The notes under the pieces: model-generated | What the model saw: the letters and a program-made list of their open reading frames with translations, nothing else | What the model was told of the DNA's origin: nothing | The model's database searches: none | Part shown: positions 8,744 to 12,669 of the stretch, in pieces | How positions within the stretch are numbered: the first letter of the stretch is position 1 | How the letters are laid out: every line of letters starts with the position of its first letter | Virus genome (UHGV): UHGV-0286042 | DNA: 14,049 nucleotides | Source of the DNA: a virus | Reading direction: 5' to 3' (one strand) | Program-made: the position numbers and the translations under genes

Positions 8744-9094
8744 ATGGGTAAGGCCAAACTTCTAATTTGTGGTGTTCTTTTATCAGTTGTCGGCACGTCA
8801 GAGGCCTTAGCTGATACTCAGTGCGGGCCGTATCGCCTCACTGCGGGCAAAGAAGGACTAATGCTTATTAACGGGGTAAAACCTGAAACGCAAAAAATGT
8901 CTTTTCTCAAGTCTAAAGATGACTACCAAAACATGAAAGCAGAATGGATGGTTGCAACCGACCAACCCGGCCGCTGGGTTGGGCTTGAGTACATCAAGCG
9001 CAACGGCAAAGCCATTCTCAACGCACAGTGGCTGCAAGCCAGCATGAATGCGCCGCGTCAGTATGCAACATACGACTGCGTGAAGGTGAAGTAG
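8744..9094 (+). CDS. moron-encoded small secreted (periplasmic) protein, function unknown
   Basis: ORF track 8684..9094; start chosen at ATG 8744 (MGKAKLLICGVLLSVVGTSEALA|DTQCG...) giving a classical Sec signal peptide with AxA-like cleavage site; mature protein about 93 aa with Cys near both termini; lower GC than flanking tail genes; no structural-gene resemblance. Confidence 0.55.
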   Translation: MGKAKLLICGVLLSVVGTSEALADTQCGPYRLTAGKEGLMLINGVKPETQKMSFLKSKDDYQNMKAEWMVATDQPGRWVGLEYIKRNGKAILNAQWLQASMNAPRQYATYDCVKVK

Positions 9095-9100
9095 GTATAA

Positions 9101-9126
9101 AGAAAAAGCGCCGGGTTGACCGGCGC
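9101..9126 (-). terminator. rho-independent terminator (hairpin GCGCCGG-GTTGA-CCGGCGC, T-run on the minus strand)
   Basis: 7-bp perfect GC-rich stem 9108-9114 / 9120-9126, followed on the minus strand by TTTTTCT (9107-9101); lies directly 3' of minus-strand ORF 9133..9483 and 3' of the + strand secreted-protein gene. Confidence 0.6.
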
Positions 9127-9132
9127 GCCAAG

Positions 9133-9483
9133 TTATTCCTCTTTGAAGCTGATGTTCTTGCACTGCTCCATTACTTCAATCAGTTCTTTTGACGTCAGGT
9201 TTTCTACTTCGATTTTACCTTTCTCTGTGGTCATTGTTATTTTTTTGGATGATCTGGTCTGTATCCATTTTCTTGCGATAGATGCAATGGCTATACAAGC
9301 TGGTGACGACGTGGCTACGATGATAGTTATGTCGACGAGCGTGCCAACCGCATTAATTGAGTCAGCAGTTCTGATTCGCCTGCGTATTTTATAGTCACTT
9401 TCAGGTATGTTATCCTGGATTACGGAGAGCAATTCTTTGCCTATTGCTGGAGTAAATTTTATGGTTGTTTCTGATTTTGGCAT
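9133..9483 (-). CDS. moron-encoded small membrane protein (single predicted TM helix, K/E-rich C-terminus), function unknown
   Basis: 116-aa ORF on the opposite strand to the whole tail operon, in a markedly AT-rich stretch where long ORFs are unlikely by chance; hydrophobic segment LVDITIIVATSSPACIAIASIA; own terminator at 9101-9126; weak RBS. Confidence 0.5.
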   Translation of the reverse strand: MPKSETTIKFTPAIGKELLSVIQDNIPESDYKIRRRIRTADSINAVGTLVDITIIVATSSPACIAIASIARKWIQTRSSKKITMTTEKGKIEVENLTSKELIEVMEQCKNISFKEE

Positions 9484-9622
9484 AAAGGTATCCGGCCCCT
9501 ATCGTGAGAAGCTAAAAATTGCCTTGCGGCTTTTCCTTGGCAGCCTGTATCTCGCTACAAACCACGACGTTACCGTAGTTTTAAGCAAGACCTACATTCA
9601 GGGCTGCAAAGAAGATAAATAG
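9461..9622 (+). CDS. candidate small ORF (53 aa), alternatively a non-coding leader or sRNA ending at the 9663-9687 terminator
   Basis: GGAG at 9449-9452, 8 nt upstream of ATG 9461; ORF overlaps the 5' end of the divergent minus-strand gene; followed about 40 nt later by a + strand intrinsic terminator. Confidence 0.25.
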   Translation: MVVSDFGIKVSGPYREKLKIALRLFLGSLYLATNHDVTVVLSKTYIQGCKEDK

Positions 9623-9662
9623 CACGGACAAATCAGCCTTCAAACCCTGACGTTTGATCAGT

Positions 9663-9687
9663 AACCCGCCGCCGAGCGGGTTTTTTT
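9663..9687 (+). terminator. rho-independent terminator on + strand (CCCGC-CGCCGA-GCGGG followed by TTTTTTT)
   Basis: 5-6 bp GC stem 9665-9669 / 9676-9680 followed by 7 consecutive T (9681-9687); sits inside the tail operon immediately upstream of the spike gene RBS. Confidence 0.6.
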
Positions 9688-9698
9688 ATGGAGTTTTT

Positions 9699-10439
9699 AT
9701 GCCAATTCCAACTCAATCACAGATCGGCGGAGAGCAGCAGACCGCGCAGGCCATTGCCGATTCGGTGTCTACCCAGATGCGCGTAGCGATGCCTGGCATC
9801 ATTCAGTCGTTCGATCCTGATACTGTTACCTGCACAGCAGAGGTGGCGCTTCGCGGTATTGTTGGCGACGGCTCCACCGAATTAAAACCGCTGGTGGATG
9901 TGCCGGTTATCTTTCCTCGCGGCGGTGGTTGCACGCTGACCTTTCCGGTAAAAGAAGGCGATGAGTGCCTGCTGATCTTTGCCGACCGTTGTATCGATTT
10001 CTGGTGGCAGAGCGGCGGCGTTCAGGAGACCGTCGACCCGCGCCAGCATGACTTATCTGATGCGTTCGCCATCGTTGGCCCGCAGTCGCAAGCGCAGAAA
10101 ATCAGCGGTATCAGTACCAGCGCCGCGCAGCTGCGAACCGATGATGGCTCGGCGTTCGTAGAGGTCGCAGCAGGGCATAACATCACCGTTAAAACGCCGG
10201 GCAAGCTTACGGCTACGGCTGAGGGTGGAACGACAATCACATCCCCGACTATCACGCTGAACGGCAACGTAACGATTAACGGTAACCTGTCTCAGGGAAT
10301 GGGAGAAAGTGGCGGTACTGCGACGATGCTTGGGCCGGTGACGGTAACGAATGACGTAACAGCTTCTGGTATCAGTGTCGCCACGCATAAACATGGCGGA
10401 GTACAGACTGGCGGGGGAACTACCGGAGGGCCGCAATAA
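9699..10439 (+). CDS. baseplate central spike protein (P2 gpV / Mu gp45-like)
   Basis: ORF track 9654..10439, but 9654 start would translate through the terminator hairpin; ATG 9699 has GGAG at 9690-9693; Gly/Thr-rich beta-helix-like C-terminus with HKH motif (ATHKHGGVQTGGG) typical of spike apex domains. Confidence 0.65.
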   Translation: MPIPTQSQIGGEQQTAQAIADSVSTQMRVAMPGIIQSFDPDTVTCTAEVALRGIVGDGSTELKPLVDVPVIFPRGGGCTLTFPVKEGDECLLIFADRCIDFWWQSGGVQETVDPRQHDLSDAFAIVGPQSQAQKISGISTSAAQLRTDDGSAFVEVAAGHNITVKTPGKLTATAEGGTTITSPTITLNGNVTINGNLSQGMGESGGTATMLGPVTVTNDVTASGISVATHKHGGVQTGGGTTGGPQ

Positions 10440-10792
10440 TGCGATACCGTCGCGAAGATACTGAAGGCGATTACACTTTCGGCCAGGGTGACGATACTTT
10501 CCTTATCGACAGTCCGGAATGTGTCGCCCAGGCCGTTAAAACCCGTTTCGAACTGTGGCGCGGTCAGTGGTTTCTCGATCTGACGGAAGGCACGCCGTAT
10601 GTTCAGTCAGTGCTTGGGAAGCAGCGATCAGATGTCTACATCCTGGCTATACGCGAACGCATACAGGATACACCGGGCGTTCTGTCGATTCTTTCCTTCG
10701 ATACCAATTATGACGGCACCAGCCGTCGCGTCACCTTCACTTCCTCCATTGACACAATCTACGGCCAGACGACTGTAACAAGCGAGGCATAA
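10439..10792 (+). CDS. small baseplate protein (gpW / gp25-like or related small baseplate wedge family)
   Basis: 117 aa, ATG overlapping upstream stop (TAATG); conserved position between spike and baseplate J genes. Confidence 0.55.
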   Translation: MRYRREDTEGDYTFGQGDDTFLIDSPECVAQAVKTRFELWRGQWFLDLTEGTPYVQSVLGKQRSDVYILAIRERIQDTPGVLSILSFDTNYDGTSRRVTFTSSIDTIYGQTTVTSEA

Positions 10793-11992
10793 ATGGCTTT
10801 GAACCTCGACACGCTGGGGCTATCGGCAACGGTAACCGCCCAGGGGATTAGTGCGCCTGATTACCAGACAATCCTAGATACACTGACCAGCTATTTCAGG
10901 CAGATTTACGGTAGTGATGCCTACCTCGAACCAGACAGCAAAGACGGGCAGATGGTCGCACTGGTGGCTCTTGCCGTGCATGACGCTAACAACACCGCTA
11001 TCGGGATCTACAACTCTTTTTCACCGACGACAGCGCAGGCCGCAGCGCTTAGCAGCAATGTGAAAATTAACGGGATCACGCGAAAAGTAGCGACAAACTC
11101 TACTGCTGACCTTCTGTTAACCGGTACGGCAGGCACGACTATCACGAATGGCTCCGCACGGGATAAAAACGGCATTATCTGGAATTTTCCCGCAAGTGTA
11201 GCGATCGGCGTTGATGGTACTGTGCTGGTGACGGCCACATGTGCGAATAGCGGTTCGGTTGCGGCGCTGGCCGGGACTATTACCACTATCAACACCCCGA
11301 TCCGAGGTTGGGTGTCGGTAACCAACCCGGCTGCGGCTACTGTCGGTTCACCAGCAGAAACCGACGCAGAGCTGCGCATTCGGCAGGGGCAAAGCGTCGC
11401 GCTACCATCGATCACACCGTTTGAAGGTGTCGACGGTGCTATCGCTAATGTTGCTGGCGTGACACGTCACAAACTATATGAGAACGACACTGGGGCAACC
11501 GACAGCAACGGGCTGCCGCCACACTCTATTTCCGCCATCGTCGATGGAGGGGATGTTACCGAGATAGCCCAAACAATCCGGGGGAGTAAAGGGCAGGGAA
11601 CCGCAACTTACGGTAAAACTTCTGTCACGGTGCCGGATACTTACGGTAATCCACACGTCATCAGTTTTTCGCGCTCTACCGATGTGCCAATTTTCGTAGC
11701 CATTACCCTGAAAGTTTTTACCGGCTATACCTCTCAAATCGGCGAGCAGATTAAACAGGCTGTTGCCGATTATATAAATGGCCTGGCAATTGGCGATGAC
11801 GTTCTGCTGAGTCGTATTTATTCCCCGGCAAACCTTGGCGTGGTAAGCGGAGGCAGTGCTCGCTATTACGACATTCAGGAGCTGCTCATCGGCAAATCCT
11901 CTGACTCAGTCGCAAGCGGAAATATCGATATTGCTTATGACGAATCTGCGTCATGCGTTGCGAGTCACGTCACTATCACGGTGACCTCATGA
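10793..11992 (+). CDS. baseplate J-like protein (P2 gpJ / Mu gp47 / e14 JayE analogue)
   Basis: 399 aa; starts 1 nt after upstream stop; size and position typical of baseplate J family. Confidence 0.65.
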   Translation: MALNLDTLGLSATVTAQGISAPDYQTILDTLTSYFRQIYGSDAYLEPDSKDGQMVALVALAVHDANNTAIGIYNSFSPTTAQAAALSSNVKINGITRKVATNSTADLLLTGTAGTTITNGSARDKNGIIWNFPASVAIGVDGTVLVTATCANSGSVAALAGTITTINTPIRGWVSVTNPAAATVGSPAETDAELRIRQGQSVALPSITPFEGVDGAIANVAGVTRHKLYENDTGATDSNGLPPHSISAIVDGGDVTEIAQTIRGSKGQGTATYGKTSVTVPDTYGNPHVISFSRSTDVPIFVAITLKVFTGYTSQIGEQIKQAVADYINGLAIGDDVLLSRIYSPANLGVVSGGSARYYDIQELLIGKSSDSVASGNIDIAYDESASCVASHVTITVTS

Positions 11993-12669
11993 GCAAATAC
12001 ACCGAACTGATCACTAACTACCATGCTACCAAGCCACTCTTTTTTGACCATATAGATCTGAGCACCCGCCCGCTGATTGATGTGTCCAGCACTATGTCAG
12101 GGCTTGTAACAGCCTTCGATATCGATACTGCTGTCGGTGTACAGCTCGACATCCTCGGTCTGTGGATCGGACGCAGTCGCATAGTCAGCCAGCCAATTAG
12201 CGGAGTTTATTTCAGCTGGGACACTGACGGGCTCGGATATGACCAGGGCATCTGGCAAGGGCCATATGATCCTGATTCTGGCTATACGACGCTGAGTGAT
12301 GAGACGTACCGCATCATTCTGAAAGCGAAAATCGCTATCAACAACTGGGATGGTCGGAACGACTCTCTGCCTCCCATCCTTGACGCTGCGACTGCAGGCT
12401 CAGGCCTGAGGATGCAAATTGTCGACAACCAGGACATGACGATATCGGTTTGGGTATTCCCCGAGACTGATATTTCTGATGTGTCTCTTGAACTGATTGC
12501 CGCTATCAAACAGGGCTATCTCACCGTTAAAGCAGCTGGCGTATGGGCCGGTGATGTTGAAACGCCTTCGGTAGAAGCACCATCCGAGGGCTCTAAATTC
12601 TTTGGGTTTGATATGGATAACGAATACATCGGCGGGTTCGATGTTGGAGCATGGGGGAGATTACTTTAA
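11989..12669 (+). CDS. tail protein of the P2 gpI / Mu gp48 / e14 YmfQ type
   Basis: ORF track 11953..12669; ATG 11989 (MSKYTELITNYHATKPLFF...) overlaps J stop as ATGA; synteny J then YmfQ-like then fibre as in e14/Mu-like tails. Confidence 0.6.
   Translation: MSKYTELITNYHATKPLFFDHIDLSTRPLIDVSSTMSGLVTAFDIDTAVGVQLDILGLWIGRSRIVSQPISGVYFSWDTDGLGYDQGIWQGPYDPDSGYTTLSDETYRIILKAKIAINNWDGRNDSLPPILDAATAGSGLRMQIVDNQDMTISVWVFPETDISDVSLELIAAIKQGYLTVKAAGVWAGDVETPSVEAPSEGSKFFGFDMDNEYIGGFDVGAWGRLL

Follow-up and report, generated by a model that had tools for sequence, protein, structure and literature searches.

EACC1 proteins were originally predicted to be the constant member of an EACC1-caspase gene pair (PMC7159879, Kaur et al. 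2020). According to a recent study, EACC1 is an auto-inhibited monomer, which is cut at Asp49 by the neighbouring caspase into fragments of 5.7 and 7.1 kDa, and the C-terminal fragment forms membrane pores (bioRxiv 10.1101/2025.11.14.688446, Evans et al. 2025). Here we describe a member of this family encoded by a stretch of viral DNA of 14,049 nucleotides (nt) from the UHGV virus genome UHGV-0286042, the whole of which is referred to as the window. Its open reading frame (ORF) list and its Pfam and PHROG matches identify the window as the + strand tail/baseplate operon of a temperate myovirus-tailed phage. Between the baseplate hub and spike genes lie three small genes: ORF A (8744-9094, + strand) for a secreted protein of 116 amino acids (aa), ORF B (9133-9483, minus strand) for a 116-aa orphan EACC1-family protein, and ORF C (9461-9622, + strand) for its conserved 53-aa partner. 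The cassette formed by ORFs B and C most probably serves the prophage as a defence or addiction module, of a kind so far undescribed for the EACC1 family.

On sequence evidence, ORF B belongs to the EACC1 family. It matches the Pfam EACC1 model PF19953 over positions 23-103 of 107 (E 5e-5), with a score of 23.6 bits that is exactly the gathering threshold, and most members of its 21 homologue clusters either match PF19953 or bear the NCBI name EACC1. A profile built from 13 homologues and run against 1.84 billion representatives retrieved 28 proteins, nearly all of 106-127 aa; the nearer matches were from Enterobacterales and the farther ones were typical EACC1 proteins, with PF19953 detected in six of seven. 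In the wider ORF B family, 15 of 23 members have this match. When the family was aligned by hhalign with a canonical-like EACC1 set (7 members, 6 of them with PF19953), the probability was 98.5% (E 1.8e-15). The adjacency of the distant EACC1 matches to caspase genes is taken from the literature. The earlier note on this DNA, which was made from the sequence alone, had recognised no family for either of the two genes it described; ORF B is in fact an EACC1 protein (NCBI already names some of its homologues so), and ORF A falls into PHROG 3443.

The architecture of ORF B is also that of an EACC1 protein. Its mass (12.96 kDa) agrees with that of the known members (~13 kDa), and like them it combines an N-terminal alpha+beta domain, a linker with an Asp, a hydrophobic helix in which small residues are frequent, and strands at the C-terminus. 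More precisely, an N-terminal beta-alpha-beta domain (residues 1-38) is followed by a linker containing Asp41, a hydrophobic segment (49-70), a basic stretch and a C-terminal beta-beta-alpha-beta part. Hydropathy and the alignment show a single hydrophobic segment, as the earlier note had described; it is rich in small residues and contains the invariant motif SSPACxAIASI. The AlphaFold 2 (AF2) model places beta strands at 5-10, 31-38, 82-86 and 89-93 and alpha helices at 12-25 and 98-107, that is, a beta-alpha-beta unit, a loop, a hydrophobic strand and helix, and then beta-beta-alpha-beta. This modelled topology fits the published EACC1 organization, in which C-terminal strands are able to pair with the N-terminal domain. 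Asp41 (codon 9363-9361), located within a T-x-D-S motif, does not vary among the close homologues (13 of 13) and is conserved in most of the wider set of 23, and it lies in a linker that is rich in indels and has a low predicted local distance difference test (pLDDT) score. The best conserved region in the alignment is the hydrophobic and C-terminal, putative effector part. A fold search of ORF B against viral structures gave nothing significant.

Unlike the described EACC1 proteins, ORF B lacks a sensor domain and has neither a caspase nor any other protease encoded next to it; it is therefore outside the EACC1-caspase system as defined. No protease gene was found beside it in about 20 loci (the window and, among the numbered loci of relatives, L001-L002, L005-L010, L017-L018, L023-L026, L028-L031 and L033). 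The same check extended to the whole prophage of E. coli G3/10 revealed only an S24 repressor-type peptidase and a DUF2213 head protein. Its setting differs as well, since known systems are chromosomal and occur in actinobacteria or cyanobacteria, whereas ORF B resides in Enterobacterales prophages, namely in the tail modules of Escherichia, Klebsiella, Citrobacter, Enterobacter, Yersinia, Pantoea and Pectobacterium prophages. Finally, it is always accompanied by an opposite-strand gene of 46-68 aa that overlaps its 5' end.

This partner gene is ORF C, which the earlier note, counting two genes in the region, had overlooked. The start regions of ORFs B and C overlap head-to-head by 23 nt (9461-9483, both strands), and the GGAG Shine-Dalgarno sequence of ORF C (9449-9452) is embedded in ORF B codons; each of the two mRNAs would thus be antisense to the ribosome-binding region of the other. 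An overlap of 20-23 nt is kept in every lineage. ORF C homologues (14 clusters) with start codon, Shine-Dalgarno sequence and overlap occur in every locus with a full ORF B, in Citrobacter, Klebsiella, Symbiopectobacterium, Yersinia, Pantoea and Enterobacter, and no full ORF B without ORF C was seen among the loci examined. The linkage holds in the Yersinia and Pantoea versions, which are only 36-40% identical, and also in L026, where the pair is found in a different prophage context, a lambdoid moron region. In that locus (4474-5928) the pair adjoins a gene for a 484-aa ATPase with a weak PADLOC mad8 match (E 5e-7), and the surroundings resemble a small defence island within a lambdoid prophage that has decayed. 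ORF C itself has no family match in the libraries searched. The idea that it duplicates the ORF B N-terminal domain was discarded (hhalign probability 0.4%), and the N-terminal S-[DE]-x-x-I common to both proteins is a by-product of the antisense overlap rather than a sign of homology.

Since AT-rich spacer DNA gives many ORFs as well as promoter-like matches, and the NCBI Prokaryotic Genome Annotation Pipeline (PGAP) omits ORF B in several genomes, it might be argued that these ORFs are spurious. The comparative data refute this explanation, whose probability we regard as negligible. The ratio of nonsynonymous to synonymous differences per site (pN/pS) was 0.28-0.51 for ORF A and 0.16-0.31 for ORF B, both with synonymous sites near saturation, and 0.09-0.40 for codons 9-53 of ORF C, where pS was 0.34-0.74, which indicates purifying selection. 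Values well below 1 at near-saturated synonymous divergence mean that ORFs A, B and C are genes and not chance ORFs; the dozens of homologue clusters and the family matches say the same. The composition of the region is not uniform either, since it coincides with a distinct GC dip (see below). As for the annotation, PGAP calls ORF C in E. coli (WP_016243572.1; L001 3385-3546) and omits ORF B, and in another genome (L028 2513-2863) it calls ORF B as 'EACC1' and omits ORF C. The pipeline calls one or the other, never both, evidently because their 5' ends overlap, and most E. coli records consequently hide the EACC1 homologue.

Several loci (L012, L019-L022) carry a truncated ORF B beside an intact ORF C, and the reverse was never seen. 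In E. coli M172-1 (L012) a gene for a 240-aa lipoprotein has displaced ORF A together with the 3' part of ORF B, and in Yersinia phages a 243-aa homologue of this lipoprotein has done likewise; ORF C is intact in both cases. The retention of C where B has decayed is the pattern expected of an antitoxin. It also suits a different explanation, according to which B and C are a pure toxin-antitoxin (TA) pair with no protease step: a small membrane toxin B would be restrained by ORF C or its antisense transcript, and the pair would stabilise the prophage or its own place between the hub and spike genes rather than sense infection. An intact C beside a truncated B is the classic picture of an orphan antitoxin, the overlapping 5' ends resemble those of antisense-controlled small membrane toxins, and in a relative, ECONIH5, a Phd/Doc system occupies the very place of the cassette. 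However, Asp41 is invariant although its linker is variable and disordered, and the N-terminal domain has been retained; both facts argue for preserved licensing by cleavage. In addition, C is a conserved protein and not RNA alone, and divergent overlapping genes are unlike the usual type II operon layout. We therefore consider a pure TA pair unlikely, although the likeness to TA systems (hok/sok and tisB/istR-type, or Phd/Doc) is real: a candidate small membrane-active toxin with a small neighbouring antagonist, an antisense 5' overlap, and an 'antitoxin' retained beside a decayed toxin. What sets ORF B apart from them is its length of 116 aa with a putative auto-inhibitory domain. No sequence relation of B or C to known TA families was found in the libraries searched.

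The ORF B remnant of L012 (2404-2538) is a 45-codon ORF that ends just past D41-S42 and thus corresponds exactly to the N-terminal, putatively inhibitory domain. In Yersinia the remnants break at other points (that of L020 has 31 codons), so that the position of the L012 break may be due to chance. The L012 remnant bears on another alternative, namely that the phage EACC1 homologue, or its N-terminal domain with ORF C, is an anti-defence decoy, which soaks up or blocks a caspase-EACC1 system of the host. Phages often carry mimics of defence components, and E. coli has caspase-like proteases without a linked effector (bioRxiv 10.1101/2025.11.14.688446). Nevertheless, a decoy would have no need of the putative effector part (hydrophobic segment and C-terminal region), and yet this is the best conserved region of ORF B; the Yersinia remnants have different breaks, and canonical EACC1-caspase pairs are found mainly in actinobacteria and multicellular bacteria (PMC7159879). 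A decoy function thus appears very improbable.

The hub-spike gap is best explained as a two-part accessory slot, with ORF A as part 1 and an exchangeable moron carrying ORFs B and C as part 2 (9091-9662). The earlier note had correctly placed a moron-type accessory slot in this otherwise tightly packed late tail operon, and had taken it for one insert of two genes. Alignment with related prophages shows instead two separate units, ORF A and the B-C pair, and the exchanged unit is 9091-9662. The ECONIH5 sequence matches the window up to 9090 and resumes at 9663, with Phd/Doc in between. In other relatives with an ORF A homologue the cargo preceding the spike gene is a minus-strand DUF4236 gene, a gene for a 210-aa PHROG 1349 protein or one for a 145-aa protein, and the flanks of the alternative cargo are 94-98% identical to those of the window. 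The same order (hub, ORF A-like gene, variable gene, spike) occurs in Salmonella phage SEN34 and in Klebsiella phages. No direct or inverted repeats of the kind that border transposons were found flanking the cassette, which points to exchange by recombination in the flanks. Part 2 has these features of a moron: it varies in presence among close relatives at a fixed position between conserved genes, and it has terminators and a deviating composition. The GC content is 0.458 over 8744-9698 and 0.437 over 9095-9698, as compared with 0.530 for the whole window, which bears out the AT-richness noted earlier; in windowed form it drops to 0.42-0.46 across 8700-9750, with flanks of 0.52-0.59. By gene, the values are 0.402 for ORF B, 0.444 for ORF C, 0.493 for ORF A and 0.53-0.57 for the neighbours.

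The two intrinsic terminators that the earlier note had reported, one on each strand, were both recovered by a terminator scan and are retained in relatives with different stems. The first belongs to ORF B (9099-9126, minus strand), with a hairpin at 9126..9108 containing 7 G-C pairs and a T-run at 9099-9107. It has no T-run on the + strand, and + strand transcription is therefore expected to pass it. Its equivalents in L005, L009, L010 and L017 have other stem sequences. The second terminator (9663-9689, + strand) closes the slot, with a hairpin at 9663..9682 followed by T7, directly before the ribosome-binding site of the spike gene. A hairpin with a T-run is present at this site in 10 of 10 relatives (L001-L004, L011-L016), whatever the cargo, and the five different stems among these ten represent compensatory changes. 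As the hairpin is retained while its stem varies, this terminator is a selected feature of the slot and not of one cargo. It stands in the middle of an operon where read-through is required, which fits Q antitermination. A Q antiterminator is present in the G3/10 prophage; with Q antitermination, late transcription can pass the terminator and other transcription cannot. An Rfam search yielded only a sub-threshold sroD match overlapping a terminator.

In these respects the slot resembles the late-operon morons of lambdoid phages (the Hendrix/Juhala concept), which are likewise extra genes of lower GC content with terminators, inserted between conserved late structural genes, varying in presence among relatives and passed by late transcription with the aid of Q. 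It differs from them in that no clear promoter of its own was found, in that the slot is double (a semi-conserved gene for a secreted protein and a variable cassette), and in that the terminator belongs to the slot and not to each cargo.

Taking these observations together, we propose that ORFs B and C encode a latent membrane toxin and its small antagonist, expressed in the lysogen and located in a late-operon moron slot that is read through with the aid of Q, a reading that we consider about evenly poised between right and wrong. ORF B would be made in the lysogen as an auto-inhibited pro-toxin. A protease acting in trans, provided by the host, by another element or by an infecting phage, would cut the linker at the invariant Asp41 or close to it. 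This would remove the N-terminal domain, and the freed hydrophobic C-terminal part might then oligomerise and permeabilise the inner membrane, leading to abortive infection or addiction. ORF C may antagonise ORF B as a protein, through the mutual antisense of the 5' ends, or in both ways. During the phage's own lytic growth, Q-antiterminated late transcription would traverse ORF B in antisense and ORF C in sense orientation and thereby switch the guard off. The slot-closing terminator would keep transcription that is not antiterminated out of the spike gene. In its most specific form, which we put forward tentatively and as a doubtful possibility, this proposal describes a distinct and undescribed branch of EACC1 in enterobacterial prophages, which has lost its dedicated caspase and is governed by a head-to-head 53-aa protein: a prophage guard that stands armed while the phage is a lysogen, is set off by a protease or signal which an invading phage provides in trans, and is disarmed at the lytic switch by antisense late transcription together with ORF C.

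Several points weigh against this proposal. The defining activation partner of EACC1 is missing, the single-sequence PF19953 score of ORF B is borderline, and the confidence of its AF2 model is moderate (pLDDT 69). A PADLOC search gave only a weak SngB match (E 0.002), judged to be spurious. A sigma-70 promoter scan revealed no convincing promoter for ORF B or ORF C, and their expression in the lysogen is thus unproven; the best promoter-like matches agreed at 9-10 of 12 consensus positions, and all were located within coding sequence of AT-rich DNA. The asymmetry of truncated B and intact C goes back to only about 2-3 independent events. Furthermore, ORF B keeps its slot, antisense to the late operon, even where the hub proteins are 58-65% and the ORF B proteins 36-40% identical, and this persistence from Yersinia to Escherichia could mean a role in the phage life cycle and not in defence.

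Such a role would make ORF B an accessory lysis or membrane-depolarising factor, or a membrane superinfection-exclusion protein, tuned by ORF C; apart from the persistence of the pair in one slot even among members of the lineage that have diverged deeply, it would suit a small single-pass membrane protein. The distribution of the genes is difficult to reconcile with it. The cassette is present in 11-12 of 5426 complete E. coli genomes, compared with 57 that contain the tail region, i.e. it is missing from most relatives and found in about 11 of the 57 E. coli prophages of this type. ORF B was detected in none of 50,697 deposited phage records, and a scan of genome contigs for it gave a single locus. 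The gene runs antisense to the late operon and is distant from the holin/lysozyme/spanin cassette, and the pair also occurs in the unrelated prophage context of L026. We therefore regard a life-cycle role as improbable, and keep to the latent toxin with its antagonist as the working model for ORFs B and C.

ORF A, the first part of the slot, is oriented like the hub gene, and it starts 1 nt past the hub stop codon, follows the hub gene in most related prophages and would be transcribed with the late operon. It has 80 homologue clusters and matches phrog_3443 (E 1e-45). PHROG 3443 is a family without an assigned function. The product was described earlier as secreted, and a signal peptide (residues 1-23) is indeed present, with cleavage at an AxA site between MGKAKLLICGVLLSVVGTSEALA and D, leaving a mature protein of ~10.6 kDa. 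Cys27 and Cys112 are invariant, and the AF2 model (pLDDT 83) is an 8-strand beta-barrel. Its position is constant beside quite different neighbours (L003, L004, L013, L014 and SEN34). In some relatives it is exchanged for other genes, namely those for an unrelated secreted protein in L009 and lipoproteins in L012 (1651-2373), L015 (1640-2755), L019 (3658-4389) and L020 (4967-5698). These lipoproteins, from E. coli and Yersinia prophages, have a common C-terminal domain and no match in Pfam, PHROG or PADLOC; they are candidates for exclusion or receptor-masking genes.

The likeness of ORF A to Cor/Llp exclusion lipoproteins, suggested earlier for cargo at this position, extends to its small size, its targeting to the envelope, its location among the tail genes of a temperate phage and the lipoprotein genes that some relatives carry at exactly this place. 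ORF A is nevertheless not Cor/Llp-like: its signal is of the signal-peptidase-I type and ends in EALA followed by D, with no lipobox; there is no homology and no match in Pfam, NCBIfam or PADLOC, and a disulfide-bonded soluble beta-barrel is predicted. A virion component was also considered and rejected, because the cleavable signal peptide is always present and unrelated secreted proteins or lipoproteins take its place in some relatives; an exported protein is unlikely to be part of the virion. According to the model, ORF A is probably a periplasmic beta-barrel that acts on the cell envelope, and its location, together with the lipoproteins that replace it, suggests a function at the envelope, for instance in exclusion or receptor masking. 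The earlier view that the products of this region are not virion-like is in agreement with the export and replaceability of ORF A and with the lack of B and C in most relatives; the defence or exclusion role linked to it is plausible only. Homology of the hub gene with relatives extends to about 8697-8716, and the segment 8697-8891, which covers the last part of the hub gene and about 50 initial codons of ORF A (those for the signal peptide and the first strands), is a mosaic patch, which varies among prophages that are otherwise 95-98% identical and have the remainder of ORF A in common.

The slot is embedded in a + strand operon that encodes, in order, the sheath (DUF3383, 2281-3441), the tube (3452-3892), a tail assembly chaperone (3896-4321), a tape measure protein with an SLT domain (4499-6766), a Dit-like protein (6766-7368) and a plug (7370-7675). 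Its left border is the baseplate hub gene (7678-8742; phrog_196 'baseplate hub', E 4e-85; PF22759 E217_GP41, 25.8 bits) and its right border the gene for a baseplate spike of the gpV/Gp138 type (9699-10439; PF18352, 138.5 bits, and an Apex motif). Then follow the sheath initiator (10439-10792), baseplate J (10793-11992), a DUF2612 wedge (11953-12669) and, from 12651, a fibre and a fibre chaperone. The baseplate J and wedge ORFs overlap by 40 nt in the mechanical ORF list; as the PGAP wedge call in relatives overlaps by just 4 nt, the true wedge start is probably a later codon near 11989. The 10-nt start contexts of ORF B (9477-9486, minus strand) and the spike gene (9696-9705) are identical (TTTATGCCAA) and form a perfect 10-nt inverted repeat with the copies 209 nt apart, which is probably a chance event.

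The relatives of this operon are E. coli prophages and the Citrobacter phage Omnitron. The full prophage of E. coli G3/10 has lambdoid early genes, the antiterminator Q and a separate lysis cassette (holin/lysozyme/spanin). At its end (L027 12118-14275) a Hin-type recombinase gene adjoins oppositely oriented, frameshifted tail-fibre assembly genes, and this region resembles an invertible host-range segment. The same layout is found in L005, with a Resolvase gene and two Caudo_TAP genes.

Recent work has established EACC1 as a gasdermin-like pore former that is licensed by a protease, and the literature describes it solely as one half of an effector-protease pair. The tail modules of enterobacterial prophages now add a clade of EACC1 proteins that have no protease and are each accompanied by the same tiny partner gene. 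This raises the question of how such a toxin is licensed when no dedicated protease is encoded, whether the small protein C is an antitoxin or an adaptor, and whether the caspases without an effector that have been reported from E. coli are partners in trans of such orphan EACC1 proteins. The locus also exposes a blind spot of annotation, in which one or the other of two overlapping genes is called and never both. In addition, the succession of hub, secreted protein, variable cargo, terminator and spike constitutes an uncharted accessory hotspot of Brunovirus-like temperate phages, which may be mined for defence genes.

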